DNA of 64,000 nt from an uncultured Methanosarcinaceae archaeon (GCA_963847185.1 CAWJYV010000010.1:640001-704000); one strand, 5' to 3'; shown: positions 17,930 through 37,217, numbered from the stretch's first letter. Numbers and translations: made by a program. Notes: generated by a model not told the origin, from the sequence alone.

Positions 17930-18079
17930 TTTATATGTTCTAAGTGCTTTAGATGCATTGAAAATAAAGATCCGTATAATCATCTGTTATTAAAAACCAA
18001 TTTTGTTTTTAATCAAAGGGTTCTATACAATCTTGTTTTTGAACTATCAACTATCCGCTCAAGCGGAGGTGAAACGAAA
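17930..18079 (+). promoter_or_regulatory. TATA box and conserved structured 5' leader, copy 1
   Basis: TTTATATG; AAAATAAAGA..TATAATCATCTGTTATTAAAAAC-loop-GTTTTTAAT..TCTTGTTTTT; TCCGCTCAAGCGGAGGTGA. Confidence 0.8.
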
Positions 18080-18262
18080 ATGGCTTTTAATGACAGAAAT
18101 TTCAGGGGAAATTCCGGAGGCTTCCGCGGTAACAGCGGTCCAAGGGAAATGACAAAAGTGACCTGTTCTGACTGCGGTGTTGAGACTGAAGTTCCGTTCA
18201 AACCAACCGAAGGCAGGCCAGTATACTGCAGGGAATGTCTTCCAAACCACAGAAAATTCTAA
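18080..18262 (+). CDS. RGG-rich CxxC-x17-CxxC zinc-ribbon microprotein (copy 1)
   Basis: FRGNSGGFRG...CSDC-x17-CREC; strong SD GGAGGTGA. Confidence 0.9.
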   Translation: MAFNDRNFRGNSGGFRGNSGPREMTKVTCSDCGVETEVPFKPTEGRPVYCRECLPNHRKF

Positions 18263-18273
18263 AGATAATCTGC

Positions 18274-18316
18274 ATCAGATGTTAATCTTGTAATTAATTT
18301 TATATTAACATCTGAT
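18274..18316 (+). terminator. 3' hairpin after CxxC copy 1
   Basis: ATCAGATGTTAAT...ATTAACATCTGAT followed by T-rich tracts. Confidence 0.55.
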
Positions 18317-18485
18317 TCATCTTTTCTTTTTGTTTTTTTGGCTTATTCTCTTTGTTTCTTCACATATTCTTACCTCGTGCGGCTGAGAAAACTGAGAATA
18401 AAATGGCATAGAGAATGAGAACTAGTATGAACTACCAATCCCAAACTTTTGTTATTTTTTGTTAATGTTTCAAGGAGGAGTTAAT

Positions 18486-18839
18486 TTGGCTAATTACAGA
18501 AGCACTATCCGGAAGAAAAGATTAGGTTCCACAAAACCAGTAAATTCAGGAGATGCCCCTGAAACATCCAGGGTACGAATCCCCCGCAAGGAAAGAAACG
18601 AAGTCCTGGCAACGGTTTCAAGTTTACTGGGCTCAAAAAGGGTAACACTTCAGTGTATGGACGGCATTGTTCGCATGGGCCGTATCCCGGGCTCTAAACA
18701 TAAAAAAATGTGGATTCGTGAAGGTGATATTGTTATTGCCAATCCATGGGAAATTCAGGATTCCAAAGCCGAAGTAACCTGGAAATACACAAGACCTCAG
18801 ATTGAATGGCTTGAGAGAAAAGGTTACCTTAATTTCTAA
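18486..18839 (+). CDS. eif1a: Translation initiation factor aIF-1A (paralog 1)
   Basis: [19 protein letters not shown]...[34 protein letters not shown] start after GGAGG, matching paralog 2. Confidence 0.95.
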
Positions 18840-19154
18840 TTAAGGTGGGCTAATAAAGATGCCTGATGAAGGCATCTAAAATAGAGGTATCTAAAAAGAC
18901 GCTGAAATCCTTTTTTACTTTTCTGGATTTCGCTTTGTCAATATATTTTCTTCAGACCAGTTTTAGAGTAACAATATCCTTTTGTTTAGATGACTATTTT
19001 TTCATATTAAACTGAAATTGCCAGCATTGTAACGAATTGGTAAAAGCAAAATAGATATATCGAAGAGAAAAGTGAATTAAAGAAAGATCAGTTAAAATGT
19101 CATTGTTGAGTGTTCTTCTTTTGGTCAGACTTTCAGCAAGTAATTTAATATTTT

Positions 19155-20219
19155 TTATATGTATCCTCTTTTTGAATTACTGGCATTTCCCATGTTTCCT
19201 TCAAACCATCTGCAGTATTCTTCAGGGCATTGCTTCTCAGGACACTCATGAATATACTCAAGGATATCATTGAGTTTTGCGCTGGCCATTGATATTGAAG
19301 TATCTGCACTTCCGTAATAAATTCGGAGTTCATCATTCACTATCACCCATCCGCAGGGGAAAACAACATCATTAACATCTCCACTACGCTCATAAGGTTC
19401 GCGGGGTCCGAAAACCCATCCTTCTGATCTGTGGAGCACTTTCCTGGGATCTTCAAGATCAAGAAGAGCCAGTCCAAGTCGATAACTTTTTTTAGGGGTT
19501 GTCTGGCGTACTCCATGGTACATAACCAACCAACCGTCAGATACACGAAGTGGCTGCGGAGATAAGCCTATTTTGTATGCATCCCACCATCCCCCTTCCC
19601 GAGCATATAGAAGAACCTGATGTTCCCCCCAGGATCTCAAATCTGTGGAAAAGGAGATCCAGATGTTTGCCTTTAAAGTATGACCTGTAGGTGCAGGTCT
19701 GTGCAAAATTGCCCATTTGTTATTAAATTTTACAGGGAATATAGCAACATCTTTGTTATCAGGAGGCATGACAGGTCCTATTCGTTCAAATGCCCTGAAA
19801 TCCTCTGTAAAAGCAAGAGCCGGCAAAGGACCTGAGTCCGAAAAAGCTGTATATGCTATAGCCCACTTTCCCATTTCATCTATGTAAGTTATTCGTGGGT
19901 CTTCAACTCCGTATATCTCTTCAGGATAGTTTAGAGGATCTGGAAAAAAAGTTGGTTTACTGTCAATTTCCCAGCCATTGATTCCGTTTTTACTCCTGGC
20001 TACTGTAAAATGAGAAAAGCCCCTGTGGTCTTCAACACGCGCCAGTAATAAAATTTCATCATTAACTATGGCGGCTGCAGGGTTAAACACTGAATTAGCC
20101 TGGTAAGGCCAATCTTCAACTGTAAGTATAGGATTTTTTTTATGGCGTACAAATAGTTCCCCATGGTCTTTCCAGATCATATTATTCCCCATCCCTTTCA
20201 GATTTTTATTATTCCTCAT
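19155..20219 (-). CDS. GH130-like glycosidase/phosphorylase (5-bladed propeller)
   Basis: NSVFNPAA, GVEDPRIT, DNKD, WLVMYHGV, YERSGDVNDVVFPCG, IYYGSAD. The real start may be the ATG at 20180. Confidence 0.9.
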   Translation of the reverse strand: MRNNKNLKGMGNNMIWKDHGELFVRHKKNPILTVEDWPYQANSVFNPAAAIVNDEILLLARVEDHRGFSHFTVARSKNGINGWEIDSKPTFFPDPLNYPEEIYGVEDPRITYIDEMGKWAIAYTAFSDSGPLPALAFTEDFRAFERIGPVMPPDNKDVAIFPVKFNNKWAILHRPAPTGHTLKANIWISFSTDLRSWGEHQVLLYAREGGWWDAYKIGLSPQPLRVSDGWLVMYHGVRQTTPKKSYRLGLALLDLEDPRKVLHRSEGWVFGPREPYERSGDVNDVVFPCGWVIVNDELRIYYGSADTSISMASAKLNDILEYIHECPEKQCPEEYCRWFEGNMGNASNSKRGYI

Positions 20220-20264
20220 TAAAAGCTATGCAAATAAAAACTAAAAACTGCACACAACTCCTTT

Positions 20265-22253
20265 TCAGGGCTTGATATCAAGCACGTCCTCCACATATGC
20301 CCTGAGAATTTCTGCAACACTCCAGGCCTGGGCAATGCAGCCTCCAGGGGCATGAGGATAGTCACCATTAAACACTTCAGAAATCGTGCCGAGACCTGCG
20401 GTTTCAAGATGTGTATCAAAGCCCTCAATAAGAACCCGCATAGCTTCACGACTGTCTTTTGAATAATTGTGGACTTTCCGGTAAGCTTTCACATAGGCCC
20501 CAAGGAGCCAGGGCCAGGCTGTCCCGTTGTGGTAGGCCGTATCTCTAGTTACGGCGTCTCCATGATACTGTCCCTTATATATGGGATCATCACTCGAGAG
20601 AGTTTTGAGCCCAAAGGGTGTGAGAAGATCTTTTTCAACTCTATCCACAATTGCTTTTTCTTTATCAGGAGAAAGAATAGTATAAGGGAGCGATACGGCA
20701 AAGATTTGATTGGGACGGATTGCAGGATCTTTAACCTGGTTTCCTGCTTCATCCTGATATATCAGATCAAAGAGGCAATTAGTCTCAGGGTTCCAGAAAA
20801 CATCCTCAAAATTTGAGGCAACGCTGGCTGCAAGGGTCTCATATGGCGAAATGTCTTTGCCGAGAAGAATTCCCAAATTGGAAGCAGTCTTCAGGGCATT
20901 ATACCAGAGAGCATTTATCTCACAGGCTTTACCTGCTCTTGGGGTCACTGCCATTTCCCCTATCTTGGCATCCATCCAGGTTAGTTGAGGTCCCTGTTGA
21001 ATGAGATAGTCAAAATCCATTCCGATTCCAAAATCTGTACCTTTATGATAATTGTCTATAATAGTCTCTACAGTATCCCAGATGTCCGAGAGGAAGAGAA
21101 AGTTTTTCGTATATGCAAAGTAACGGCTAACAGCATGAATAAACCAGAGAGAAGCGTCAACTGTATTGTAGATCGGCTCCCCTCCGAAAACCGGGAAAGT
21201 ATTGGGGATTAAGCCTTTCCTACAGTACCTGGCAAAATTTTTGAGAACTGATCTGGCTTCCTCGTAACGATATGGAACCAAAAACAATCCAGGCAGAGAA
21301 ATCATGGTATCCCTTCCCCAGTCAGAGTACCAGTGATATCCTGCAATCACCGTATTTTCACCTGAAGAAGGATTTTTCACTATAAATGCATCAGTTGCCC
21401 TGAGAAGCTTGAGAGCGAAGGGTTCGATGAGCCTGGAATTGAGAGAAAGTAGATTCTGCCTATTTACTTCCCTTGTATAAAGCTCCTCAACTTGCTCGAG
21501 AGTAAAAGAGGAAATATCGTCTGTTGAAGCAACGATAAATATTTGAGAAGTTCCCATTTTGAGTTTGCTTTCGAAATAACCGGGACTGAAATTATCCTCC
21601 TGGGAGTTGCAGTCCCTTTGTTTCTCAACATCGTATTCGAAGTTGTAGTGCCAAACCGGATCAGGATAGTACTGAATATTAGACGAGAGCGAGAAGGTAA
21701 AACCATTAGAACTTTCCAGTTTTACTCCTGCATGACCAGCTTTCTGAGAAAAGGAAAGATACCCTGAACGAGTAGTGAAGTGAAAGTCTCTTGAATTTAC
21801 CAAAGGGAATATTTTTAGCAAAGCTTCCTCTTTTCTGGATGTTATATCATAAAGAACACAGGTTGTATTACTGTTATGGACCATGAAGACTATTTTCTTT
21901 ATGATAAAGTCTCCAGGCTCGTAAACCCAAACAGGAAACGGGTCGTAAATAAATTCTGAAAGATACTCGAAGCCTGCAGGAGAAATAACATCCGGATATT
22001 TATGGGCTGCAAGTTTATAAATTTCTTCATTCCCTCTACTAATTGCGATTTCTTCATCAAGGGAAGAAAGCAGCAAGAATCTCCCTGGGGAGTTCTCCGG
22101 AGCTGCCACAAGCAGTCCGTGGTAAGTCCTTGTTCCAGCTCCTATAACTGTAGAGGAAGCATATCCTCCAAGCCCATTTCCGGTAATCCACTCTCTTTTA
22201 ATTCCTTCTTCATATGTTGAAAGAGAATCTCTTCCAAGCCTGACCCCACTCAT
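20265..22253 (-). CDS. Amylo-alpha-1,6-glucosidase (glycogen debranching enzyme, archaeal type)
   Basis: EWITGNGLGGYAS, AGYHWYSDWGRDTMIS, LTWMDAK, RPNQIFA, YHNGTAWPW, GCIAQAWS. Confidence 0.95.
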   Translation of the reverse strand: MSGVRLGRDSLSTYEEGIKREWITGNGLGGYASSTVIGAGTRTYHGLLVAAPENSPGRFLLLSSLDEEIAISRGNEEIYKLAAHKYPDVISPAGFEYLSEFIYDPFPVWVYEPGDFIIKKIVFMVHNSNTTCVLYDITSRKEEALLKIFPLVNSRDFHFTTRSGYLSFSQKAGHAGVKLESSNGFTFSLSSNIQYYPDPVWHYNFEYDVEKQRDCNSQEDNFSPGYFESKLKMGTSQIFIVASTDDISSFTLEQVEELYTREVNRQNLLSLNSRLIEPFALKLLRATDAFIVKNPSSGENTVIAGYHWYSDWGRDTMISLPGLFLVPYRYEEARSVLKNFARYCRKGLIPNTFPVFGGEPIYNTVDASLWFIHAVSRYFAYTKNFLFLSDIWDTVETIIDNYHKGTDFGIGMDFDYLIQQGPQLTWMDAKIGEMAVTPRAGKACEINALWYNALKTASNLGILLGKDISPYETLAASVASNFEDVFWNPETNCLFDLIYQDEAGNQVKDPAIRPNQIFAVSLPYTILSPDKEKAIVDRVEKDLLTPFGLKTLSSDDPIYKGQYHGDAVTRDTAYHNGTAWPWLLGAYVKAYRKVHNYSKDSREAMRVLIEGFDTHLETAGLGTISEVFNGDYPHAPGGCIAQAWSVAEILRAYVEDVLDIKP

Positions 22254-22377
22254 GTATATTTGATTAGGATTGATTTGTTAAATAGCTGTACGTTTGGAAA
22301 AAAACAATCCCTTTATGAATTGTTCTTTTTACATACTTGAATTCTCTATCGTATTCTTTTTTCCTTCTAAAAGTCGC

Positions 22378-23367
22378 TTACAGAGGGGAAGCAGGTACAG
22401 GACTGCGTCTGGCAAAGGCGGCCTTGAGATGGTCATTCGCCAGACCAATTGCGCTGCAAGTGGCAGGTGTACCCGCAAGTGCGTTTAGCATCACGAAATC
22501 GTGTATAGTTCCAAGGTATCTAACGGCTGTAACATTAACACCTGCTTGAATCAGCTTATGAGCATACGCTTCACCTTCGTCACGGAGCACATCATTTTCA
22601 TCAGTGATAATAAGAGCTGGCGGCTGTCCTTTAAGCTGATCAATTGAGGCCTGTAGCGGGGATGCTGTCGGTTGTCTGCTCGCTTCTTCGTCAGGTAAAT
22701 AGTTGTCCCAGAACCACTTCATAGCCTCACGGGTGAGCCAGATGTCGGTTGCAAACTTCTGATATGAAGGGGTATCGAAATTGGCATCAGTAACAGGATA
22801 AAAGAGTACCTGATAATCAATTTTCGGGCCTCCACGCTCCTTTGCCAGCAGCAGGACCGCTGCTGCCATATTCCCGCCTACGCTATCTCCGGCAACTGCT
22901 AACCTTGAAGAGTCCAGGTTGAGTTTTTTCCCGTTCTCTGCAATATACTTCGTCGCTGAGTATGCCTCTTCTATAGGTGTCGGGTATTTTGCCTCCGGGG
23001 ACGGCGTGAAATTCACAAACACAACTGCAGCATTAGCTCCGCTGGCAATTTCCCTGACCAATCGATCATGCGTATTTTTGTCCCCAAGCACCCAGCCGCC
23101 TCCATGGAAATACATCACGACTGGCAGGGTCTCTTTGATTCCTTTTGGCCTTGTTATTGTAATCGAAACCTGTCCATTAGGACCGGCTGGGATGTTCAGA
23201 TTTTCAATATCAACAGGCAGTTTTGCAACTTCCCCTGCCTGTAAATCGGAAAGAACTTTACGGGCATCTTTGGGTGATAGTTTGTAAATCGGAGTTCCAC
23301 CCTGCTTGTTTACTTTTTCTACAAATGCTCTGGTTGTTGGTTCCAGTGATTCGATGATTTGATTCAT
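22378..23367 (-). CDS. Alpha/beta hydrolase, HSL-family esterase
   Basis: HGGGW oxyanion motif, GDSVGG nucleophile, DVLRDEG, HDF. Confidence 0.95.
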   Translation of the reverse strand: MNQIIESLEPTTRAFVEKVNKQGGTPIYKLSPKDARKVLSDLQAGEVAKLPVDIENLNIPAGPNGQVSITITRPKGIKETLPVVMYFHGGGWVLGDKNTHDRLVREIASGANAAVVFVNFTPSPEAKYPTPIEEAYSATKYIAENGKKLNLDSSRLAVAGDSVGGNMAAAVLLLAKERGGPKIDYQVLFYPVTDANFDTPSYQKFATDIWLTREAMKWFWDNYLPDEEASRQPTASPLQASIDQLKGQPPALIITDENDVLRDEGEAYAHKLIQAGVNVTAVRYLGTIHDFVMLNALAGTPATCSAIGLANDHLKAAFARRSPVPASPL

Positions 23368-23851
23368 GAATTATCCCCCTTAGCTTGCTTTTATTCGTAA
23401 TTTGATTGATGTAATTAGTAATGCAAAAAATAATCTCAGAGTCCACCTGCAATTACAGGATTGATGTTCAAAATCACTATAGGATTCCCTATGGGAATTG
23501 CAGATATCATTTAGAGCAAATAATTTAGTTAAACATGCGCCTGGTTTTCTTTGTTAACAGGTAAAACTGGACTACTGTTGAGCAGATATATAACTGAGAA
23601 ATTTATATAATTAATAGAATAAATTTTCCTTATGAATAGTAATCTCTAAAAAGAGCAAAAATAAAAAAGTTCAGAAGAAAGAAGGGGCATGACAGAAACA
23701 ATTTTTGCCTCGAATTTCTACCTGCTGCTTTTAAAAATCTTGTAGCAGGAAAAACATAATTAGCTGCCGTAGAAAAATCATTTCAATAAGATTCTACGTT
23801 TTAAACAAAATCCGGGGAGATTTGAAGTAAATTATCAAGGGGTTAAAAAGC

Positions 23852-25000
23852 ATGACATATACCTTTCTGAATCCAAAGATAGCCCTTATGGGCGCTGGCT
23901 GTGTAAAAGAAATTGGCAAGCATGCAAAAGATCTTGGGGCTACAAAAGCCCTGATAGTTTCCGGCAAAAGCAGGCATGGAGAAGAGCTCGCACGAGATAT
24001 TTACAGGATTCTTGAAAAAGAAGGCCTGGAAGCAACAATCTTTGCAGGAGCAGATCCGAATCCGACCGATACTTCGGCTATGGAAGGAGCGGATATCTAC
24101 AGAAAAGAAGATTGCAATATAATAATTGCTGTCGGAGGCGGAAGCCCGATGGACTGTGCCAAGGCAGTTGGCATTGTGGTATATAATGGCGGATTGATCA
24201 ATGATTATGAAGGCATCGGAAAAGTTACGAAAGGAATTCCTCCTCTCATTACGATAAACACAACCGCTGGCACTGCAAGCGAAATGACAAGTTTTACAAT
24301 TATTACGGACACGAAAAGGCACATCAAAATGGCAATTGTTGACCCTCGAATTACACCTGACATAGCGGTCAACGACCCTGAACTTATGGTAAGCATGCCG
24401 CCTGCACTTACAGCTGCAACCGGAATGGACGCCCTTACACATGCAGTTGAAGCTTATGTTTCTACCATGGCTACCCCGACAACCGATGCGGCTGCTATCA
24501 AGGCAATCGAGCTTATCTCAAAATATCTGCCTGAAGCCGTTGCTCACGGAGAGGATGTAAGGACAAGAGACATGATGGCTCATGCCGAATATCTCGCAGG
24601 CATCGCATTCAATAATGCAAGTCTTGGCTACGTGCATTCCATGGCTCACCAGCTTGGAGGGTATTATAACCTTCCGCACGGTGTTTGTAACGCTATTCTT
24701 CTTCCCTATGTGGAGATGTACAATAAGCAGGTAGTCCCCGAACGTTTTGCAGACATTGCACGGGCAATGGGAGAAAAAGTTGAGGGATTGAGTCCTGAAG
24801 AAGCTGCAGATAAAGCCATAGATGCCATTAAAAAGCTTGCATCAAAAATTGGAATTCCCTCCGGTTTAAAAGAGCTTGGGGCAAGGGAAGAAGACCTGGA
24901 ACTTCTGGCTGAAAATGCCATGAAGGACGTCTGCAGGCTCACAAATCCCAGAGATCTCTCAAGAGAGGAAATTATCGAGATTTACAAGAAAGCCATGTAA
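23852..25000 (+). CDS. Iron-containing alcohol dehydrogenase
   Basis: GGGSPMD, TTAGTASE, DALTHAVE, HSMAHQLGG, PHG. Confidence 0.95.
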   Translation: MTYTFLNPKIALMGAGCVKEIGKHAKDLGATKALIVSGKSRHGEELARDIYRILEKEGLEATIFAGADPNPTDTSAMEGADIYRKEDCNIIIAVGGGSPMDCAKAVGIVVYNGGLINDYEGIGKVTKGIPPLITINTTAGTASEMTSFTIITDTKRHIKMAIVDPRITPDIAVNDPELMVSMPPALTAATGMDALTHAVEAYVSTMATPTTDAAAIKAIELISKYLPEAVAHGEDVRTRDMMAHAEYLAGIAFNNASLGYVHSMAHQLGGYYNLPHGVCNAILLPYVEMYNKQVVPERFADIARAMGEKVEGLSPEEAADKAIDAIKKLASKIGIPSGLKELGAREEDLELLAENAMKDVCRLTNPRDLSREEIIEIYKKAM

Positions 25001-25114
25001 TTTCACAGAAAAGAGATTTAATTTGAGACTTTGCAGGAAAACGATGAATCTGAAGAAACACTTTAAATTAAGAATGCAAAATTCTTTGGAAAATGGGCGA
25101 GATGTTAAGTTAAT

Positions 25115-25243
25115 GAACTCATCCCAAAACTTGAAATTTGCTTCTTATGCCTCATATTTTGAATGATCAATCAAGCTCATAATCACGAAAATAATTCTGA
25201 GAATCCCCAACGATAAGAATAAAGTGGCTTTTGGGATAGGCTC
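25115..25243. mobile_element. MITE, family A (complete copy)
   Basis: GAACTCATCCCAAAA...TTTTGGGATAGGCTC imperfect terminal inverted repeats (TIRs), with AAT on both flanks. Related copies at 7100 and ~39548. Confidence 0.65.
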
Positions 25244-25545
25244 AATAACTTGGCAATTTAATCCATAGTCTGCTCCTTTGCAAAGCTTATGGACTCATAC
25301 GTGCCAAATTATAAATTGGTTTGAATAAATAGTAATACACGTTATCTGCGTGGGGGAGACTTCTGGAACAATTCCACGAGCCGCCAGTCTGGACCCTGAT
25401 GGAGCAAATTTGAGCGTTACTACGATTTCCAGAAAAAGGCTTACCATTAATTCTCTCCTATTTTTTGACAGGATAAAATAGGCGCTCTGCAAGGTAAGTT
25501 ACCTGCACTGCAATAATAAACAAACAGAAACAAACGGAGGGATTT

Positions 25546-26076: not shown

Positions 26077-26214
26077 TAAAAGAGCAAGAAGAGGGGTTGA
26101 GACTGATTTTTGTATTCATTAGCTAATTGGAAATGTGTTCTCTCTTTATGTTTTAAGACTCACTTGTCTCTCACTTCTCAATAATGTGGCTGATACATAA
26201 AGGAGTTGCAGATA

Positions 26215-27264: not shown

Positions 27265-27284
27265 GATAAACTGTAAACCGACAT

Positions 27285-28373: not shown

Positions 28374-28693
28374 AATTCCGGAAGATGAAAAGGTACTTTG
28401 AAGCTATCGGTTTCGTAAAGAGCCAATTAAATTCGATTCTAGTCTTATGCCGATTTAATCTTAATTCTAATCTTAATTTTAATATTATATATGTTAATTC
28501 ATATATATTTTGAGTTTTATACTTGTTTTTACCAATAATGATGTGACTGCTTTTTGACTGCAGAGTTCTTTATAGGGGGAAAAAACACAGGAAGCATTGG
28601 AGGTCCCATTAATCATTCATATGACCCTTCCGCCCTTCAACAGCGCAGCAAAAACTGGAAAGCAGAAGCAGAGTCTTGACTGGGGGATAGTGA

Positions 28694-29254: not shown

Positions 29255-29761
29255 AGTATGCCTGCTTAAACTGCCACTATATTCAATGTCGTAATTGAAA
29301 ATAGAGAAGTAAAGCATTTATTCTCTATTGGCGGCCGAAGATTCAAAAGCTGTCGCGGAAGGAAGAAAGCCGGCCAAGAAGGGAGGAATTAAAAACGAGA
29401 ACTCAAATAGTTCAGGCATGGCCTGAATCTTTTGTATTTATTGAATATATAAACTGAGGGATTAGGGGGGAAAAATCCAGATTTTTTCAACCGACCCCGA
29501 ATCCGGTTTAAATGAGCTACATAATTCTCAAAAATTTGCAATGTGTGTTTACAAAAAGTAATTGCATTGAGTCGCTTATGGGAATTTCTGTGCCTCTACA
29601 AAGCCGACTCTAATCCTGATATCTTTACCTGTAATTTTTGAAAATTAGCTATTTTAACACTCAGTTTCAGAATCCGGACATACCCTTAAGTTATATATAA
29701 ATCGCTAATTTACTCAAGTCGCTAGTTGACTCAGTGAAAAAACTCCGATGGAAGGTAAAGC

Positions 29762-30571
29762 ATGCTAAAAGCCATCGTTTCAAGTGTATTTTTTATTGTC
29801 GCATCGAGTCTTAGTAAGGAGATAGACAGGATATTTGCGCAGCATCAACAGCAAAAGCAGGTCATTGTCACTGAAGAGATGCTGCAAAAACTTCCAGAGC
29901 CTGTAAAAAGATATCTTGCATATACTGGAGTAGTTGGCAAACCGATGGTTCAAAAGGTAAGGCTTAAGCAGATAGGGAAAATTAGAAAAGATTTCACACA
30001 ACCCTGGATGAATTTTGAGGCTAAGCAATACTATTCCGTAAGTCCGCCTGGTTTCGTATGGGTTGCACATATGAAATTTTTCGGTTTGCCGTTTGTGCGG
30101 GTGAGAGATTATTATATGGAAGGAAAGGGCAGTATTCTGGTGAAAGCTCTTTCATTACTCACAATTGGTAATTCTGAAGGTAAGGAAATGGATCAGGGGG
30201 CAATGATGCGTTACCTTAACGAAATGATGTGGTTTCCATCGGCTTTTTTGGGAAAGAATGTTTCTTTCGAATATATTGATGCCAATTCAGCGAGAGTAAC
30301 GCTGAAGGACATTGATAAAAGTGTGACAGCAATAATGTACTTTGATGACGAAGGAAAATTGACAAACTTCATGGCTCCGCGTTATCGAGATATGGGCAAA
30401 GATAGATTTGAATTTGAACATTGGTCCACTCCGATTCGAGAATACGGTGAATTTGAAGGGCTCAACCTCCCCCGAAAAGGATCGGGAGTCTGGAATTTAA
30501 AAGAAGGCGATCTGGAATATATTGACGTAACCGTGACCGATTTAAATTATAACCCGGATGGGCCTTATTGA
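29762..30571 (+). CDS. Conserved hypothetical protein (DUF6544-like)
   Basis: LPEPVKRYL, AKQYY...PGFVW, RYLNEMMWFPSA pattern. Confidence 0.65.
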   Translation: MLKAIVSSVFFIVASSLSKEIDRIFAQHQQQKQVIVTEEMLQKLPEPVKRYLAYTGVVGKPMVQKVRLKQIGKIRKDFTQPWMNFEAKQYYSVSPPGFVWVAHMKFFGLPFVRVRDYYMEGKGSILVKALSLLTIGNSEGKEMDQGAMMRYLNEMMWFPSAFLGKNVSFEYIDANSARVTLKDIDKSVTAIMYFDDEGKLTNFMAPRYRDMGKDRFEFEHWSTPIREYGEFEGLNLPRKGSGVWNLKEGDLEYIDVTVTDLNYNPDGPY

Positions 30572-30646
30572 AGATCCTTGGGCTTATTAAGGAGTCTCTT
30601 TGAAGAATTAAAGGCAGCTTTAGTTATCCTTTCAACTTTCGGGTCA

Positions 30647-31192
30647 TTATCTTTTAATTTTCGACATCACACTCTGAGTAATCAGTTTTTCGTACTTTCT
30701 CCAGGTATTTTCATCAATTTCAGGCATAGATATACTATGAGCTTCACTTCTCGCAGGAGCGGTGCAGGAGTCGATTACTTTCTGGATGGCGGCAGGATCT
30801 TTATTTCCAACCATATCTATGACTTTTATTTCTCTGAGAAAGCGGGTGATTGCAGTCATCGGGATTTCATTTAAGTAGGGCAGGGATGCTTTTGAACCGA
30901 CTATTTTTCGCGAGCCTGCCATTGTAGAAACGCCATTTTCAGCAAGTGCAATCAGGGACTGACCTGGAAAATGGGCACTATCTTCTCCGCAGACGACCAG
31001 GCAGGTTATATTCGGGTTTGCAAGAACATTTGCAATTATTTTCTCAATCCCGAAGTTCTCAGAAAAGCAAGTTCCGCAGATAGCATAATTTTTCAGGTTC
31101 CAGATTCTATAGTCAGAGGTAAGAGTCACTACAGCTACGCTTGAATTTACATTCCCTATTACATAGTCACCATCAGTTACAGGCCACTCCAT
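30647..31192 (-). CDS. Soluble MtrA/MtxA-like corrinoid protein
   Basis: WP..GDY.IG, AVVTL, ENFGIEKIIANVLANPNI, CGE...H.PGQSL; no C-terminal membrane anchor. Confidence 0.85.
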   Translation of the reverse strand: MEWPVTDGDYVIGNVNSSVAVVTLTSDYRIWNLKNYAICGTCFSENFGIEKIIANVLANPNITCLVVCGEDSAHFPGQSLIALAENGVSTMAGSRKIVGSKASLPYLNEIPMTAITRFLREIKVIDMVGNKDPAAIQKVIDSCTAPARSEAHSISMPEIDENTWRKYEKLITQSVMSKIKR

Positions 31193-31310
31193 AATATCGC
31201 TCCTGATCTCAAAAGGCAGTATCTCACTTGATTACTCAGAATAATGTTGTTTTTCTGAAACTTATACTATATGTTTTCACTGGATTATCATATCACTTTT
31301 ATAAGCTCAA

Positions 31311-32681
31311 CTATTCTCCTAAATCCTCAGAAATGCCTGCTGAAATTCTCTCGGCTTCAATTTCTGCCAGTCTTTCTTTTTCGATTTTTATAAGCCTGAA
31401 TGAGAGAAAAACAACTATGTATATTATTGCGGCTGCGATAAGGAAGGAAATTGCTCCGAAATGTGTATAGAGAAGGCCACCTGCCAGAAGGCCGATTATA
31501 CTTGCCAGGCTACTTGCACTCATGGCAAACCCCTGTACTGAGCCCTGATACTTATTTCCTGCAAATTTTGAGAGGATAGAGAGGATAGAGGGCCACATGA
31601 TTCCGTTTCCAAGCGCAAAAAAGACAGCTGCTATATATAAAAGGAAAAAATTTCCGGGGACTATGAGGATGAACTGCAGGCCAAGGATGAAGCCTCCACC
31701 GACTACCAGAAGCGATTCCCGATACCTTTTAGCAAGTCTTCCAAGAACAGGTCCCTGCACGAAAGCCATAAGGGCACTAATAACGGAGAAATAAATGCCA
31801 AGTGTGGCAGGATTCCATTCAAGGGCTGCAACAGCAAATATCGGGAATGCAGTATAATATATATTAAAACCCAGAAAGATAAGAAAATAAAGGGTCAGCA
31901 TGAAAGGGATATACTCAAGCTTGAAAATCTCGTTGAAGGTAACTTTATTTTCTCCTTCTACACGATAACATTCCTTTTGCTCCTGTCCAAGTACTTTCCT
32001 TATACTTTCAGGTTCGGAGTATCTTTCAATTTTGCAGGGTTTGGAATCAGGTAGGAAGAATATCACGACAAGAGCCCCTATAACTGAAATTACAAGGGCT
32101 GCAGACACAGGGAGAAGTTCACCGTAAACAGTTGCCCCGAGGAGACCTGCAAGGGCAGGGCCGACTACATATCCAAGATTGGAGGCAACAGACATCCTTC
32201 CATAGTTTTTGTTTCTATCCTCTTCGGATGTCAGGTCTGCAAGATACGCGTTTGCCACAGATATGTTTCCTCCTGTAGCCCCATCAAGAGCTCTGCCACA
32301 GAAAAGCGCAAACAGAGGAAGGGTGACTGTAAATGTACCAAGAAATTCGGAGTTAACTTCTATTAAAGGGATTATCGGCAGGAAGAGCGCGGAAAGAAAG
32401 ATTATCCATCCAATAACGGTCCCAATCTGGCTCAATAACAGAATTTTTTTCCTCCCATAAAGGTCAGACCAGCGCCCCAGAACAGGAGCTCCGATGAGCT
32501 GGAAGAAAGGATAAGTGGAAGTCAGCAGGCCGTAGATAAGTGCATTTCCTTTGTAGTCAGTCACGAGAAATACGAGAAAAGTGAGGATAACCCCGAATCC
32601 CAGGGTTCCTATGAATGTGATCGTATATAAGGGAAAAAGTGCCTTCCCTTCTACAGATGAGGATTCTGAATCCCGAATCAT
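31311..32681 (-). CDS. MFS transporter (TetA/DHA1-like)
   Basis: GRWSDLYGRK motif A, RALDGATGGN, ~12 hydrophobic segments. Confidence 0.9.
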   Translation of the reverse strand: MIRDSESSSVEGKALFPLYTITFIGTLGFGVILTFLVFLVTDYKGNALIYGLLTSTYPFFQLIGAPVLGRWSDLYGRKKILLLSQIGTVIGWIIFLSALFLPIIPLIEVNSEFLGTFTVTLPLFALFCGRALDGATGGNISVANAYLADLTSEEDRNKNYGRMSVASNLGYVVGPALAGLLGATVYGELLPVSAALVISVIGALVVIFFLPDSKPCKIERYSEPESIRKVLGQEQKECYRVEGENKVTFNEIFKLEYIPFMLTLYFLIFLGFNIYYTAFPIFAVAALEWNPATLGIYFSVISALMAFVQGPVLGRLAKRYRESLLVVGGGFILGLQFILIVPGNFFLLYIAAVFFALGNGIMWPSILSILSKFAGNKYQGSVQGFAMSASSLASIIGLLAGGLLYTHFGAISFLIAAAIIYIVVFLSFRLIKIEKERLAEIEAERISAGISEDLGE

Positions 32682-33299
32682 CCATAGATAGTATGTTTAC
32701 TTCATGCCTTATAGTATTTCATATCTAAATTTTCGAGTTTCGATGTGGCTTCTTTCGGAGTAAATGAATGCTATTCTTTCATTTCTCTATGAAAAATACC
32801 GCTAAACACAGGCCAAGAGTCACTTTCCCGGTGTTGTTTCCAGAATGCCTTTTTCTGGAAAGGTTCTAAACTCTTCTCATTTGTATCCCATGTCGAGACT
32901 TAAACGTGAGGTCAAGCTAAGTCTTTAGACAATATCTAAAATCTGGACATTCTGTACTTAAGAACAGCTCATTAAGAGGTTTTTATGTTATTTGGGAGCT
33001 GTATGAGGAACTAATTAACGCCTGAAATGATTCTTTTTGCTTTATTCGCATTCTAGCCGCTTTCAGAGATTTTATAAAGAATAAAAAGATGAATAATACG
33101 TGAAAACTACCTTTTGCTTTTCTCGGAGACTTTTTAATTGATATAGGAGTTTATATACTGATTTATTTAAATTTGGAGTTTCCATCATCTATTATCAAGG
33201 TAAATAAAGTATTATCAAGTTTTAAACCCTTTACGCATAGCAATATTCAGGACTGTTATAAAAAGTATACTTATATTCTAATTTTACAATATGAGTTTA

Positions 33300-33785
33300 G
33301 TCCCAGGTTGCTTCCCTTGAAATAAAGCAAAAGTCGGGAGCAATATACGGGAAATTAAAAGATCTTTAAATTTGAAGGAATAAAGATCTCTCTAAAAAAT
33401 AAGAAGGAAACTTCGAAAAACGAGGAACAAACACGGAGAAAATTGAACACTAGTACGTTCAGTGTACGAAAGTTGCGATATCTGCTCTTTCAATTAAGTC
33501 TCTGTTCCTTCCGGAGATGCTGTGGCAGAAATCGCTACCAGATCCCGTGCAGGCAACCTGCATTATGCCTCTGAACAGGTACTGATTCAGAGTAGACGGT
33601 TGCACGACAACAGAAAGCACAGTTGTTGTATTTCTCTGTGATGAATAAAAACCCTGGATAAGCGGTAGAAAGGCGGTGTCTGATACTGAATGAATCGGGG
33701 TTACTACCTTACACAGAAGAATTTTTCAGGTAACACCTGAGGGCGGATCAGATGTTGCCTGAAAGATCTTTCTTATTTTTGGGTA
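33300..33785 (+). ncRNA. Candidate large structured non-coding RNA (unassigned)
   Basis: GC-richer island within a 1.3-kb ORF-free intergenic region. About 10 hairpins, a 14-bp closing stem, GAAA loops and a T-rich end; TATA-like boxes at 33256-33277. Confidence 0.5.
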
Positions 33786-34045
33786 GATATTTTCGAGATA
33801 GTTATTTCTAGCTTGCTATTTTCTGAATCTATTCTTTAATCATTAATGCTGTTTTTAGTCGTAATTTTATAAGTTGCTATTTGTGGCCGATTTTAAGTGT
33901 TATTCTCTGGGCCTTATTTTCAGTGTTACTTTGGAATTATTAATCTTCGAATCTTAATTCTTTAACTTCTTGTCCTTTACAGATGGATCTCGCAAAATAA
34001 AAGGCCTCGAAATATTCTTTATTCCAGAGTATTATTCGGTTATAT

Positions 34046-34717
34046 ATGTCAGTAATATATTGGAAGAATATTTCCGGAAAGAATATACCTTCAAGCCTGG
34101 ATTTATACCCTGTAATTTATCAGTATTTACAGGATGGATACAAAATTCTCGACATTGGATGCGGTTTTGGCAAGATTAGCCTGAAACTCGCTTCCCTCGG
34201 ATATTCTGTGACAGGGATAGACATTAATCATGAGGCAATAAGGCTTTCAAAAGTAGTTGCAGAGGAGGGAAGTACTTCAGGAAAGGCTGAATTTGCAGTC
34301 GGAAATGCTTCGGTACTTCCTTTTTCTGGAAAAAGTTTTGATCTTGCAGTCATGCAGGCTTTTCTGACCTCTGTACCTGACGCGCAGGAAAGAATAAAAA
34401 TCATAAAGGAAACCTTCAGGGTACTGAAACCCGGAGGCTGTCTCTATCTTGTAGAATTTGGACAGAACTGGCACCTTAAACTTTATAGGAACCGTTATCT
34501 CAGGGATTTCCCAGTTACAAAAGAAGAAGGATCTTTCCTTGCCCATAACCCTGAGACCGGAAAAGTAGAGTATATAGCACATCATTTCTCCGAAAAAGAA
34601 CTTGTACTTCTGATGGTAAATTGCGGGTTTGACATCGACTATTTCAGGATTGAAGAACTCAAAACCAGAACCGGAAATAAAATTAATGGTTTTGTTATCA
34701 TTGCTAAAAGACTTTGA
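34046..34717 (+). CDS. Class I SAM-dependent methyltransferase
   Basis: ILDIGCGFG, GIDIN, LPF...SFD, RVLKPGG. Confidence 0.9.
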   Translation: MSVIYWKNISGKNIPSSLDLYPVIYQYLQDGYKILDIGCGFGKISLKLASLGYSVTGIDINHEAIRLSKVVAEEGSTSGKAEFAVGNASVLPFSGKSFDLAVMQAFLTSVPDAQERIKIIKETFRVLKPGGCLYLVEFGQNWHLKLYRNRYLRDFPVTKEEGSFLAHNPETGKVEYIAHHFSEKELVLLMVNCGFDIDYFRIEELKTRTGNKINGFVIIAKRL

Positions 34718-34855
34718 AGTTCCGTGTTTCATCTTCACAGAGCTTATTTTAAGTGTTGGATCTGGGTAAATCTTCAGACTCACATCATTTTCTTCTTTAT
34801 CAGTATCTCCTCATCACTATCTTCCCATCACTATTTTTTCATCACTGTTTTCTCA

Positions 34856-35182
34856 TCAATTTATTCTGTCACTTAGATGAAGTCCAACTACGCCTGCCAC
34901 GACAAAGAATAGGGATGATATTTTAAGTGTGTTTACCGGTTCTTTAAAAAAGAAAATCCCAATAACAGTAATGAGAGCTGTCCCAAGCCCTGCCCATATT
35001 GCATATGCGATACTTACATCTATTCCCTTAAGGGAAAGGGTAAAAAAATAGAAACTGATGGCATAAAATACGAAAATTAAAATGGAAGGAAACAATCTTG
35101 AAAAACCCTCAGAAAGTTTCATGCATGTGGTTCCACAGACTTCAAAAACAATTGCCAGTAAGAGCAGGTAGTAATAATTCAT
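34856..35182 (-). CDS. SMR (EmrE/QacE-like) multidrug efflux protein
   Basis: AIVFEVCGT (Glu14 equivalent), KLSEGF, AYAIWAGLG. Confidence 0.92.
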   Translation of the reverse strand: MNYYYLLLLAIVFEVCGTTCMKLSEGFSRLFPSILIFVFYAISFYFFTLSLKGIDVSIAYAIWAGLGTALITVIGIFFFKEPVNTLKISSLFFVVAGVVGLHLSDRIN

Positions 35183-35404
35183 TAATCCACTGTTTATTTC
35201 TCCATCTATTAATTAGTTATTTTTTATTAAATTCTTCAACGATCTATTCTTGCAAAATTATATTTTTTTGATAATAGGCCAAAAAATGGTCACAATTAAA
35301 GTATCATACTTATTTTCTCCAGTTAAAACAGCCGCTGAAGCCTGTAAATTATTTTTTTCATTTTGTAATTTCTGTTCTTATGTATACTGCACATCCTAGA
35401 TACA

Positions 35405-35564
35405 TTTATATAGTATGAGAGCTTGGGTCATATTAGCAGTAAAAATAAAGAGCCATATAATCTGTTATTAAAAACCTCATTTTTGTTTTTAATAAAAGAG
35501 CGTATAGATCTTATTTTTATAGCAGCCTAAATGTATATCCGCTATAAGCGGAGGTGAAACAAAA
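35405..35564 (+). promoter_or_regulatory. TATA box and conserved structured 5' leader, copy 2
   Basis: TTTATATA; ATAATCTGTTATTAAAAAC..GTTTTTAATAA; TCCGCTATAAGCGGAGGTGA. Confidence 0.8.
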
Positions 35565-35789
35565 GTGAGTTTTAGTGACAGAGGAGGGCATTCCTTCAGA
35601 GGAAGAGATAGCAATCGGGGAAGTAGAGACAACAACCGTGGTGGTTTCAGAGGCGGCAGCAGCGGACCCAAAGAAATGTACCCAGCGGTTTGTTCTGACT
35701 GTGGCGTTGAGACCCAGGTTCCATTCAAGCCAGCTGAAGGAAGACCTGTTTACTGCAGAGACTGTCTCCCAAAACACAGAAAATTCTAA
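35565..35789 (+). CDS. RGG-rich CxxC-x17-CxxC microprotein (copy 2, GTG start)
   Basis: FRGRD..RGGFRGG...CSDC-x17-CRDC. Confidence 0.9.
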   Translation: MSFSDRGGHSFRGRDSNRGSRDNNRGGFRGGSSGPKEMYPAVCSDCGVETQVPFKPAEGRPVYCRDCLPKHRKF

Positions 35790-35989
35790 TTCCATAAATT
35801 CTGCATCTTCTAAGTTTTAGTGTTATAAATGGAAATCTCTGGAAACAGAATTTCCAAATCCACTTTATTCTAATGCTTATTTAACTCAAACTCTACAATT
35901 GATTTCACCTATGCTCTAGAAGCTGATTTATTACAACAATCTCCCGATTTTGAGGAAGACGCTTTTATCCTTTTGGTTCTCTGGATTAG

Positions 35990-36139
35990 TTATATATAAC
36001 ATAAACAGATTTTTACAATTAGTAAAAATAATAAGACATAATCTGTTATTGAAAACTTCATTTTCGTTTTAAATAATAAATTATCTCTTATCATATTTTT
36101 ATAAATTATTTTATCCGCTATAAGCGGAGGTGAAACAAA
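35990..36139 (+). promoter_or_regulatory. TATA box and conserved structured 5' leader, copy 3
   Basis: TTATATA; ATAATCTGTTATTGAAAAC..GTTTTAAATAA; TCCGCTATAAGCGGAGGTGA. Confidence 0.8.
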
Positions 36140-36364
36140 ATGGGTTTTAATGACAGAGGAAACTCCTTCAGGGGAAGAGACAGCAGCCGGGGTGGCAGAG
36201 ACAGCGGCCGTAGTGGTGGTTTCAGAGGCGGTAACAGTGGCCCCAGAGAAATGCACAAGGTTACCTGTTCTGACTGCGGGGTTGAGACTGAAGTTCCGTT
36301 CAAACCAACCGAGGGACGGCCAGTGTACTGCAGAGAATGCCTTCCTAACCACAGAAAATTCTGA
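36140..36364 (+). CDS. RGG-rich CxxC-x17-CxxC microprotein (copy 3)
   Basis: CSDC-x17-CREC; near-identical to copy 5. Confidence 0.9.
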   Translation: MGFNDRGNSFRGRDSSRGGRDSGRSGGFRGGNSGPREMHKVTCSDCGVETEVPFKPTEGRPVYCRECLPNHRKF

Positions 36365-36567
36365 AATTTAATATCTCACTCGTAAGTGTTGATCTATAAA
36401 TTAATATATCAACACTTGTCCACTTTTATTCATGCTTTTTGTTAAACTTTTTTTCCCCTTCTTTCTACATCGGGCTTTAACCTCGTTTGCAAGAGTGGCA
36501 GCTTCATAACGAAGGTTACAGTAACTCAAGGTAAAAACATTTTTCACGGTATACTGATATGATAAAA

Positions 36568-36720
36568 CTTATATAATGTGATTGTATATGTAGCTCCAGT
36601 AAAATTAAGAGTCATATAATCTGTTATTAAAAACCTCATTTTTGGTTTTAATAAAAGAGCATATAGATCTTATTTTTATAGCGTATTAGGAAATCCGCTA
36701 TAAGCGGAGGTGAAACAAAA
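36568..36720 (+). promoter_or_regulatory. TATA box and conserved structured 5' leader, copy 4
   Basis: CTTATATA; ATAATCTGTTATTAAAAACC..GGTTTTAATAA; TCCGCTATAAGCGGAGGTGA. Confidence 0.8.
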
Positions 36721-36924
36721 ATGGGTTTTAATGACAGAGGAAATTCCTTCAGGGGAAGAGACAACAACCGCGGAGGTTTCGGAGGTCCTAAGGAAATGCA
36801 CACTGCAGTCTGCTCTGACTGCGGTGAAGAGACACAGGTACCTTTCAGGCCAGACCCTGACAGACCAGTCTATTGCAGAGAATGCCTTCCTAACCACAGG
36901 AAGCCTAGAGAGAACCGCTATTAA
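36721..36924 (+). CDS. RGG-rich CxxC-x17-CxxC microprotein (copy 4)
   Basis: CSDC-x17-CREC. Confidence 0.9.
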   Translation: MGFNDRGNSFRGRDNNRGGFGGPKEMHTAVCSDCGEETQVPFRPDPDRPVYCRECLPNHRKPRENRY

Positions 36925-37064
36925 CTCTCCTAATTCATTCATAATTTTGCTTGACATATTATGTCCGTTTTGCTGCTTGGGCAGGTCAAACGGACCACTT
37001 CTTTTTATACACTTAATTAAATGCCTATCTCTATTCTATGTTGCTCTGTTTTTTCATGGTAATA

Positions 37065-37217
37065 TTTATATAATCAAACTACTATGTAGGTATAGCTAAA
37101 AATAAAGAGACGTATAATCTGTTATTAAAAACCAGTTTTTGTTTTTAATCAATAAATTATATACAATCTTGTTTTTACCTTTTATCTCTTATCCGCTATA
37201 AGCGGAGGTGAAACAAA
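37065..37217 (+). promoter_or_regulatory. TATA box and conserved structured 5' leader, copy 5
   Basis: TTTATATA; ATAATCTGTTATTAAAAAC..GTTTTTAAT; TCCGCTATAAGCGGAGGTGA. Confidence 0.8.

Follow-up and report, generated by a model that had tools for sequence, protein, structure and literature searches.

A conserved leader of archaeal CxxC-x17-CxxC microprotein genes as a candidate two-state translational switch

Five short genes for CxxC-x17-CxxC microproteins lie in a 64,000-nucleotide stretch of DNA from an uncultured Methanosarcinaceae archaeon (GCA_963847185.1 CAWJYV010000010.1:640001-704000; in the following, the window), and all of them are preceded by a leader of about 120 nt. What does such a leader do, and why is one sequence motif within it almost invariant? 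The original prediction, made from the sequence alone, had proposed a new archaeal cis-regulatory RNA and had left the motif unexplained. We found the five leaders where they had been placed, each with a TATA box, a 5' hairpin and a GC hairpin. The parts follow one another in the same order at all five loci: a TATA-like box, an AU-rich hairpin of about 85 nt, a linker of 20-35 nt, a small GC hairpin, the Shine-Dalgarno (SD) sequence, a spacer of 7-9 nt and the start codon. We refer to the AU-rich hairpin at the predicted 5' end as hairpin 1; its coordinates are the matches of a covariance model, R1, that was built from the ten hairpins of this genome. As developed below, the leader is probably a cis-acting two-state translational switch, in which mutually exclusive folds set access to the start codon.

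Complementarity between hairpin 1 and the start region

The minimum-free-energy folds contain the two stems that had been proposed for hairpin 1, AAAAUAAAGA with UCUUAUUUUU as the outer and AUUAAAAAC with GUUUUUAAU as the inner one. Fold z-scores of the leaders were -2.1, -3.4, -5.0, -3.6 and -3.6 for copies 1-5, and 8, 0, 0, 0 and 1 of 200 shuffled sequences each folded as well. The motif ATAATCTGTTATT is found in all five copies, with the 3-nt insertion in copy 1 that had been noted before; in copy 3, two bases are missing just 5' of the motif and an A is replaced by G just 3' of it. Judged by sequence complementarity, this motif together with the apical loop is an anti-start-region sequence. 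It would have two alternative partners, either the 3' arm of the hairpin or the spacer, the AUG and codons 2-6.

To follow this pairing in relatives, we used a set collected from 74 sources, which yielded 130 hairpins and 125 distinct leaders; 116 of these precede an intact CxxC gene, and 9 precede genes that are decayed or cut by the locus end. In 116 of the 116 intact leaders, UCUGUUAUUAAAA and the apical loop are complementary to the leader's own spacer, start codon and codons 2-6, with 24-31 predicted pairs at about -21 to -29 kcal/mol. When leaders were folded with the first 45 nt of the coding sequence (CDS), many members changed their fold, window copies 1, 2 and 4 among them; copies 3 and 5 kept the local hairpin. 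In the switched fold, the end of the SD is paired, along with the spacer, the AUG and codons 2-6, and the partner strand is made up of the invariant motif of the 5' arm, the apical loop and the beginning of the 3' arm. The core consists of 13 contiguous pairs, one U.G included, between UCUGUUAUUAAAA and UUUUAAUGACAGA, the latter at CDS positions +6 to +18. Among 109 distinct intact leaders, 13 core pairs are formed in 101, 12 in 7 and 11 in 1. Duplexes of -20.8 to -25.3 kcal/mol with 24-28 pairs were also predicted for the 7 intact leaders outside the motif pattern. Against 300 shuffled start regions each, the window copies reached z-scores of -4.4 to -5.7. In an alignment of 109 sequences and a 25-pair duplex (A6), 95.1% of 2702 cells were paired, compared with 45.6-60.0% when partners were slid by 1-3 columns. 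The arrangement is that of long-distance start-site masking, with an upstream complement of the SD/AUG region that is exclusive with a local hairpin.

Codon choice follows the same pairing. In 107 distinct coding sequences, Phe-3 is encoded by TTT in 107 of 107 cases, as opposed to 22 of 338 Phe codons elsewhere in the same genes. Within codons 2-6, Asn is AAT in 99/108 cases (162/502 elsewhere in the same genes), Asp is GAC in 104/104 (243/330) and Arg is AGA in 104/104 (469/870). It is precisely the favoured codons that pair with the motif; the MRFDS proteins of other genera have TTC for Phe-3 (L050, L052). Amino-acid changes keep the pairs as well, since Asn to Ser (AAT to AGT), as in window copy 2, gives U.G, and Asp to Asn (GAC to AAC) gives U-A. 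Moreover, the loop covaries with codon 2: TCCA or TCCGC occurs with GGT (11/11), TTCA or TTCAC with AGT (9/10), and CAA, TAA, CA and similar loops with GCT. This exchanges C-G for U-A between a leader base and the first, non-synonymous position of codon 2, and the loop lies outside all stems of hairpin 1. Finally, we swapped partners among 77 distinct combinations of leader and start region. Cognate duplexes averaged -23.42 kcal/mol and non-cognate ones -22.30 kcal/mol, 55 of 77 leaders did better with their own start region than with the average of the others, and the observed mean was reached in 0 of 2000 permutations; shuffled start regions gave -7.85 +/- 2.33 kcal/mol. Codon choice, loop/codon-2 covariation, pair-keeping changes and the swap test hence speak for selection on the duplex.

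Hairpin 1 itself also appears to be under selection. That flanks and linkers diverge and stems persist, as originally claimed, was borne out by a per-column profile of 44 distinct leader-plus-gene sequences. Pairwise identity was about 0.2-0.5 upstream of the TATA box, about 0.9 in the TATA box and 0.9-1.0 in most of the hairpin, as compared with 0.3-0.7 in the linker and the 3' untranslated region (UTR) and 0.3-0.6 at third codon positions of the zinc-ribbon domain. Constraint on the hairpin thus exceeds that on synonymous sites in the gene it precedes. In 108 distinct sequences, 93.5% of 3114 cells were paired, against 39-53% with partners slid. Six of the 29 pairs have changed on both sides, in 42 cells versus 13.3 +/- 3.1 in shuffled alignments (0/500 shuffles as high), and the covariation score was 0.089, compared with 0.063 for shuffled and 0.031-0.045 for slid alignments. 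There are 140 G.U cells but only 55 A.C cells, and R1 scores on the reverse strand are 30-36 bits compared with 52-105 bits on the sense strand, which argues for selection on a sense-strand RNA and not on a DNA palindrome. Taken together, these comparisons favour selection on RNA pairing. We dropped a third hairpin (UGAAAC with GUUUUA, around the AUG), which appeared in some folds but showed no consistent covariation.

The TATA box claimed upstream of each leader is present as a TATA-like octamer at all five loci. Within the larger set, 121 of 125 distinct leaders have a TATA-like motif within 50 nt upstream, and in 114/125 it starts 31-37 nt before the A-run of the outer stem (mode 33 nt, 58/121). 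With the usual distance between TATA box and start in archaea, transcription is expected to start within a few nt of the stem. Contigs assembled from RNA libraries of four studies run from within the hairpin into the CDS (Table 1), so that the assembled molecules hold both the anti-start motif and the start region. No information comes from the uncovered stretches or from the adapter-flanked contig ends at 36640, 37113 and 37118.

Two competing folds and alternative explanations

The long-range duplex excludes hairpin 1, and the two folds are nearly isoenergetic by prediction. With either the local hairpin or the long-range core enforced in 109 leaders, the energy difference (long-range minus local) averaged +0.15 kcal/mol at 10 C, -1.16 at 25 C, -2.42 (standard deviation 3.97) at 37 C and -3.37 at 45 C; the long-range fold was lower in 50, 61, 75 and 87 of the 109, respectively. 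The median ensemble probability of the long-range fold was 0.14, 0.59, 0.64, 0.65 and 0.73 at 10, 20, 30, 37 and 45 C, with a wide spread among paralogues; window copies 1-5 gave 0.985, 0.90, 0.13, 0.61 and 0.28 at 37 C. With hairpin 1 closed, an unpaired AUG had a predicted probability of 0.83 where the SD hairpin is present (n=69) and of 0.54 where it is missing (n=40), compared with about 0.23 at full equilibrium. In these models the folds compete, and the predicted trend weakly favours the open fold in the cold.

We propose the following mechanism. In the open fold, the first ~85 nt would close into the AU-rich hairpin, the anti-start sequence would be held by the hairpin's own 3' arm, and the AUG is predicted to be free. 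In the closed fold, the same 5' arm and loop would form about 25 bp with the last SD bases, the spacer, the AUG and codons 2-6 (MxFNDR), and the start region would be buried. The 3' arm matches the start region at 12 of 16 bases (consensus read by eye) and can thus act as a decoy. The hairpin should be the first structure to form, since its transcription precedes that of the start region. Refolding could be nucleated by the apical loop, which displays anti-AUG bases. That translation is what the leader controls, and which of the two folds is "on", we infer.

The small GC hairpin, which takes the first GGA of GGAGGTGA, would be an accessory to this switch. The hairpin TCCGCT-loop-AGCGGA is present in all five copies, and its last GGA opens the SD as had been described; the loop ATA holds for copies 2-5 only and is CA in copy 1. 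Among 120 leaders having a GGTGA, 64 form a stem of 6/6 pairs (TCCGCT/AGCGGA 49, TCCGTT/AGCGGA 8, TCCGTT/AACGGA 3, TCCGTT/AATGGA 1, TCCGCT/AGTGGA 2, TCTGCT/AGCGGA 1) and 12 one of 5/6 pairs, and the remainder is without an SD hairpin; the loop has 14 different sequences. Wobble and compensatory changes hence maintain the stem. Counted by a somewhat different rule, the SD hairpin is present in 74 and absent in 42 of the 116 intact leaders, and it is an optional accessory. A structured cis-regulatory leader acting on translation, as originally inferred, is retained, but the switch is probably not seated in the SD hairpin. A thermometer of the ROSE or fourU type was rejected for this hairpin: its stem is GC-rich, with 6/6 pairs in 64 of the 76 stem-bearing leaders, and covers only the first 3 SD nt.

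As to the putative trigger, for which temperature and autoregulation by the encoded protein had originally been suggested, we rank temperature or refolding kinetics first, the open fold being preferred in the cold as in cspA, and binding of the encoded RGG/zinc-ribbon protein or of another RNA chaperone or helicase second. Neither the trend in the predicted energies nor the helicase fusions described below amount to evidence that such regulation occurs. We may further speculate, with considerable doubt, on a rheostat. About ten paralogous mRNAs per genome would share an anti-start sequence that closes the start in cis and possibly in trans, each copy with its own set-point. The result would be graded, cold-favoured translation of an RNA-chaperone/translation-factor system that is genomically coupled to extra aIF1A paralogues.

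Several observations weigh against the two-state switch. Column-wise covariation of the duplex is weak: one of 25 pairs shows a double change (4 cells; A-U 78, G.U 25, G-C 4, other 2), and the covariation score of 0.069 compares with 0.067 in shuffles, 22/500 of which reach it. This is because both partners are nearly invariant, and the case therefore rests on complementarity, codon choice, the loop/codon-2 association and the swap test, the counts of which come from related sequences and are not independent events. An AU-rich beginning of the CDS might in part have been selected to keep the start unstructured, although the preference for GAC argues against an A/U-rich start as the mere cause. 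Nearest-neighbour energies are unreliable for AU-rich long-range helices, and the probability of the long-range fold varies from 0.13 to 0.985 in the window. At equilibrium, copy 1 is predicted to be almost always closed, though the M. mazei group of these proteins was always identified in proteomics according to the accessible text of PMC12704099; equilibrium hence cannot be the whole story. CxxC leaders of other genera, described below, have no comparable anti-start duplex (RNAduplex against shuffles, z -2.7 to +1.7). The 5' end is deduced from TATA spacing. RNA contigs cannot show starts, and the libraries can hold DNA; the contigs begin 17-35 nt inside the predicted leader, none covers its first 17 nt, and one X1 contig (36401-36660) crosses a promoter region. 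Lastly, the bulges and internal loops of hairpin 1 are conserved beyond pairing needs, which suggests a further partner.

The RGG/zinc-ribbon protein that the gene encodes could be such a partner, as could a DEAD-box helicase or a TRAM chaperone acting with it, and binding to the hairpin would then shift the folds. Autogenous control of this kind concerns the trigger and would be compatible with a two-state RNA; we consider it a tentative and rather unlikely alternative. Most of the 5'-arm conservation is already explained by its two pairing partners, although the sequence is conserved beyond pairing, as just said, and one leader design common to ten paralogues is as expected of a shared feedback loop. 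Domain fusions to DEAD-box helicase and OB fold fit nucleic-acid binding. In M. mazei the proteins are abundant and zinc-binding, and some of this kind have been purified, but the authors suggest a role in transcription and not RNA binding (accessible text of PMC12704099). Alternatively, hairpin 1 might mainly stabilise the mRNA by blocking 5'-to-3' decay, and the start-region complementarity would be secondary. This would agree with a hairpin that begins within a few nt of the 5' end predicted from TATA spacing, with leaders of other genera that also begin with a hairpin of about 75 nt, and with the abundance of the gene products (same accessible text). A stabiliser needs a stem, however, and not a particular sequence. 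It leaves unexplained the invariant motif, the choice of TTT, AAT, GAC and AGA, the loop/codon-2 covariation and the cognate advantage, and we regard it as improbable.

A conserved TTTTT ends the hairpin, and two more T5 runs lie in the loop and the 3' arm. Oligo-T is an archaeal termination signal. Transcription could hence stop at the terminal run and leave a small RNA of about 85-90 nt, a trans-acting or attenuator leader that pairs with the start regions of all paralogous mRNAs; such pairing in trans would be possible, as motif and start region are near-identical in ten paralogues. In M. mazei, 21% of unannotated small ORFs lie inside previously detected small RNA (sRNA) candidates, as stated in the accessible text of PMC11456600. 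However, RNA contigs continue from the hairpin into the CDS, the T runs are required for the stems anyway, no short transcript was observed, and the motif is sequestered within a closed hairpin, which makes this explanation very improbable. Least credible to us is that the similarity is left over from a recent duplication or conversion of the genes, or that it is a palindrome acting as an operator at the DNA level, with no RNA function. The genes are indeed tandem paralogues, and copies 3 and 5 encode nearly identical proteins; but the hairpin exceeds synonymous sites and flanks of the same gene in conservation, it is found in 28 of 121 genomes, and the SD hairpin shows compensatory changes. 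The excess of G.U over A.C and the lower reverse-strand scores given above equally contradict a DNA element. The two-state switch thus remains the reading that we prefer.

Extent of the family, encoded proteins and neighbouring genes

The original prediction spoke of all five CxxC genes. All five in the window do have the leader, but the genome holds 11 such genes (TIGR04272 matches), 10 of them with hairpin 1 and only 6 of those 10 with the SD hairpin. In the 4.04 Mb of the genome there are 10 sites at which RAAAAC follows the 10-mer ATCTGTTATT, all of them upstream of a CxxC gene, and R1 finds exactly these ten besides weak reverse-strand echoes at eight. Four hairpin-1 copies on contig C4 carry AAAACCAAGGTGA in place of the SD hairpin. 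A second cluster, G000:C4:188055-204482, contains five leader-plus-gene units at a spacing of 2.4-6.2 kb; in four of them the SD hairpin is missing and the encoded protein is shorter, with ...HRTPRENRRY at its end.

Of 121 Methanosarcinaceae genomes sampled, 28 were matched by R1, and these fall into 3 of the 16 genus groups, with 19/19 in g1 (besides the window's own genome), 2/2 in g2 and 6/6 in g13; with strict filters, there was no match in the other 13 genus groups of this sample. The protein family is wider than the leader (85/121 genomes, 11/16 genus groups). We compared 80 loci that encode a relative of the protein; in 51 the hairpin lies on the sense strand about 35-55 nt before the gene, and the titles of these 51 name Methanosarcina, Methanosarcinaceae, Methanosarcinales, or unplaced or oddly binned metagenome-assembled genomes (MAGs). 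The hairpin was found in 0 of the 29 remaining loci, which include Bathyarchaeia, Thermoplasmata-type, Hadarchaeota, Nanoarchaeia, Woesearchaeota, Methanolobus and one Methanosarcinales MAG. In the collected set, hairpin 1 never preceded any other kind of gene. Decayed copies (L036:2187-2271, L037:2181-2265, L031:899-985, L088:2751-2837, L072:500-585, L074:2038-2123) have a hairpin that is still recognisable, with the motif altered (e.g. to TCTGCT), the SD lost or the gene truncated.

In other genus groups, the leaders of CxxC genes are long and conserved too but of different design, two forms measuring about 190 nt and about 300 nt (L042-L048, L050-L055, L060, L061). Both designs share a 5'-terminal hairpin core of about 75 nt, the helix of which keeps pairing across genera in single-sequence folds (CAGUUARCUUA...UARGUUAAUUG in the long form). 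Additional hairpins are present in the ~190-nt form; their stems persist while the sequences change from genus to genus. In one genus group, a segment of the ~190-nt leader looks complementary to its own start region, though not above shuffles. A third, shorter design has a CCUCCC-type anti-SD that covaries with the SD (CCUCCC/GGGAGG, CCUCCU/AGGAGG, UUCUCC/GGGGAA). The eleventh CxxC gene of our genome (G000:C8:1077991-1078101, minus strand, MERKGF... type) has no 5' hairpin and carries this third design, in common with genes of four other genus groups (L049, L056-L059). An nhmmer profile of the 5' core from other genera gave nothing significant in this genome (best E = 1). To judge by sequence, the leaders of other genera would resemble the Methanosarcina hairpin by analogy only.

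In agreement with the original statement that the leader was not recognised as a described family, no Rfam family lies at the leaders, and the literature searched, to which supplementary tables did not belong, holds no description of it and no occurrence of the terms TIGR04272 and PF23477. A scan of the whole window at Rfam 15 gathering scores returned sRNA41 (RF02905) as the sole match, at 42502-42616 on the plus strand; this match is full-length and scores 70.2 bits, the gathering score being 45. When 35300-37500 was scanned permissively, 12 matches at chance level were obtained, all with E >= 0.53 and far below gathering. No riboswitch model matched in either scan, and the conserved part is one long hairpin. 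A cspA-type leader as defined by gene and model was rejected, as the downstream protein is a zinc ribbon and cspA had no match in the Rfam scans.

The five window proteins of 60-74 aa match TIGR04272 with 72-74 bits (cut-off 36) and PF23477 with 68-70 bits (cut-off 27) and belong to a treble-clef zinc finger family. A sequence search of the PDB with the protein returned nothing below E 0.17. Of 99 longer homologues, 10 combine the zinc-ribbon domain with DEAD-box helicase domains and 11 with an OB fold (PF21473), and by analogy binding of nucleic acid or RNA is plausible. The DEAD-box helicases that contain the domain have about 420 aa, some being named DeaD and one coming from a Bathyarchaeaceae MAG, and further fusions are with an FKBP domain, a SET domain and PF13451; P0058, P0062, P0063, P0072, P0073, P0075, P0076, P0078 and P0079 are among the fusion proteins. 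In M. mazei, eight such proteins bind zinc and were invariably detected at the highest confidence in proteomics; the authors propose a role in transcription, and UTR, leader or cold are unmentioned in the accessible text (PMC12704099).

Genes for the translation initiation factor aIF1A (PF01176) lie downstream of copy 1 (18459-18839, plus strand) and copy 5 (37709-38059, plus strand), and another one, G000:C4:190953-191324, downstream of a C4 copy. These are three of the genome's four aIF1A-like genes, and their distance from the preceding CxxC gene is about 200-270 nt; the remaining one, on C7 (60-69% identical), is solitary. An aIF1A-like match was found near the leader in 42 of 101 loci. 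An X1 RNA contig spanning 37405-37700 and beyond may hint at read-through. The four-copy cluster has as neighbours an MtrA-like gene (30647-31192, minus), an MFS transporter (31311-32681, minus), a class I methyltransferase (34046-34717, plus) and an SMR-type small multidrug-resistance protein (34856-35182, minus). These differ from the flavoprotein/adenylosuccinate-lyase context of M. mazei spRNA09/10, as far as given in the accessible text of bioRxiv 10.1101/2025.10.28.685009, and a link to these RNAs was not made for this reason.

Table 1. Leaders, start regions, genes and RNA contigs in the window; positions are counted from its first nucleotide.
Feature	Position	Strand	Basis and remarks
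Copy 1 TATA-like box	17930-17937	+	sequence reading
Copy 1 hairpin 1	17956-18044	+	R1 match 100.9 bits, fold; core UCUGUUAUUAAAA 17983-17995, then apical loop
Copy 1 SD hairpin TCCGCT-CA-AGCGGA	18054-18067	+	overlaps SD GGAGGTGA 18065-18072
Copy 1 start region	18067-18098	+	partner of 17982-18015; SD 3' part, spacer, ATG 18080, codons 2-6; core partner 18085-18097; predicted duplex -26.0 kcal/mol, 28 pairs; 0/300 shuffled start regions as low (RNAduplex)
Copy 1 CxxC-x17-CxxC microprotein gene, 60 aa	18080-18262	+	TIGR04272 73 bits, PF23477 68.9 bits
Copy 2 TATA box	35405-35412	+	sequence reading
Copy 2 hairpin 1	35437-35522	+	R1 match 77.7 bits, fold; core 35461-35473
Copy 2 SD hairpin	35538-35552	+	SD GGAGGTGA 35550-35557
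Copy 2 start region	35555-35583	+	partner of 35460-35490; GTG start 35565; core partner 35570-35582; predicted duplex -28.7 kcal/mol, 27 pairs; 0/300 shuffles as low
Copy 2 CxxC-x17-CxxC gene, 74 aa, GTG start	35565-35789	+	family HMM matches
Copy 3 TATA-like box	35990-35997	+	sequence reading
Copy 3 hairpin 1, most divergent copy	36020-36104	+	R1 match 52.4 bits, fold z -5.0; core 36042-36054
Copy 3 SD hairpin	36114-36128	+	SD 36126-36133
Copy 3 start region	36127-36158	+	partner of 36041-36088; ATG 36140; core partner 36145-36157; predicted duplex -23.7 kcal/mol, 31 pairs; 0/300 shuffles as low
Copy 3 CxxC-x17-CxxC gene, 74 aa	36140-36364	+	family HMM matches
Copy 4 TATA-like box	36568-36575	+	sequence reading
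Copy 4 hairpin 1	36596-36681	+	R1 match 65.6 bits, fold; core 36620-36632
Copy 4 SD hairpin	36694-36708	+	SD 36706-36713
Copy 4 start region	36710-36739	+	partner of 36619-36651; ATG 36721; core partner 36726-36738; predicted duplex -26.2 kcal/mol, 28 pairs; 0/300 shuffles as low
Copy 4 CxxC-x17-CxxC gene, 67 aa	36721-36924	+	family HMM matches
Copy 5 TATA box	37065-37072	+	sequence reading
Copy 5 hairpin 1	37094-37180	+	R1 match 85.9 bits, fold; core 37118-37130
Copy 5 SD hairpin	37192-37206	+	SD 37204-37211
Copy 5 start region	37205-37236	+	partner of 37117-37151; ATG 37218; core partner 37223-37235; predicted duplex -26.4 kcal/mol, 26 pairs; 0/300 shuffles as low
Copy 5 CxxC-x17-CxxC gene, 74 aa	37218-37442	+	family HMM matches
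RNA contig X2	35455-35773		copy 2
RNA contig X1	35472-35741		copy 2
RNA contig X3	36622-36746		copy 4
RNA contig X1	36631-36743		copy 4
RNA contig X4	37113-37243		copy 5

Significance and comparison with known systems

To our knowledge, natural cis-regulatory mRNA leaders are very rare in Archaea, and the post-transcriptional tuning of archaeal translation is a largely open field. The leaders described here offer a well-defined test case, with 125 distinct natural variants, a simple competition of two helices, a CDS partner that visibly shapes codon choice and genetically tractable Methanosarcina hosts. Together with the aIF1A genes that follow, they may tie the unexplained, abundant zinc-binding microproteins of M. 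mazei (accessible text of PMC12704099) to translation or RNA metabolism. Should the rheostat be real, Archaea would possess a natural, conserved family of RNA thermosensors or translational switches, the CDS partner of which has fixed N-terminal codons and even the permitted amino acids. If temperature were the trigger, archaeal cold-shock regulation would become directly testable.

The closest likeness in behaviour may be the thermosensor in the 5' UTR of E. coli cspA mRNA, reportedly described by Giuliodori and colleagues in 2010. It is cited as an analogy in the accessible text of PMC5378194. Both are long leaders on a gene for a small, abundant protein that binds nucleic acid, putatively so in our case; alternative folds expose or bury SD and AUG in cspA, with pairing into the first codons, and would do so here. 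In cspA the open fold forms first and is favoured in the cold, the same direction as our in-silico trend predicts. In contrast to cspA, the leaders stand in an archaeal host before a zinc ribbon and not a cold-shock domain, and sequence and structure have no similarity (no Rfam family at threshold).

Long-distance start-site masking with kinetic control is known from the maturation gene leader of phage MS2 and from the 5'-3' pairing of hok mRNA. There, as predicted here, an upstream complement pairs with the start region and an early local hairpin delays closure, an architecture of anti-start and anti-anti-start elements. Those are bacterial phage and plasmid RNAs, whereas here we find a chromosomal multigene family in an archaeon with a decoy arm that mimics the start region. 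With ROSE and fourU thermometers the leaders have in common that a hairpin overlaps the SD; unlike in these, it is a perfect GC-rich stem of 5-6 bp over GGA only, is dispensed with in 42 of 116 leaders and has no Rfam match.

Autogenous leaders of ribosomal proteins, such as the archaeal L1 mRNA in Methanococcus, are among the few known systems of translational feedback in archaea. In them, too, an abundant protein that binds RNA is encoded behind a structured leader, RNA binding being putative in our case; here, however, the leader is common to ten paralogues, and no rRNA-mimic site was identified in it. Published work in the same archaeal family also presents, in its accessible text, long 5' UTRs and predicted masking of ribosome-binding sites tied to cold adaptation. 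In contrast to our findings, these are predictions on other genes with alternative start sites, and that text contains no conserved leader family and no pairing into the CDS. By sequence comparison, the best-supported reading thus is a kind of switch known from bacteria and phages that appears here as a new archaeal multigene family, with the pairing partner inside the coding sequence.

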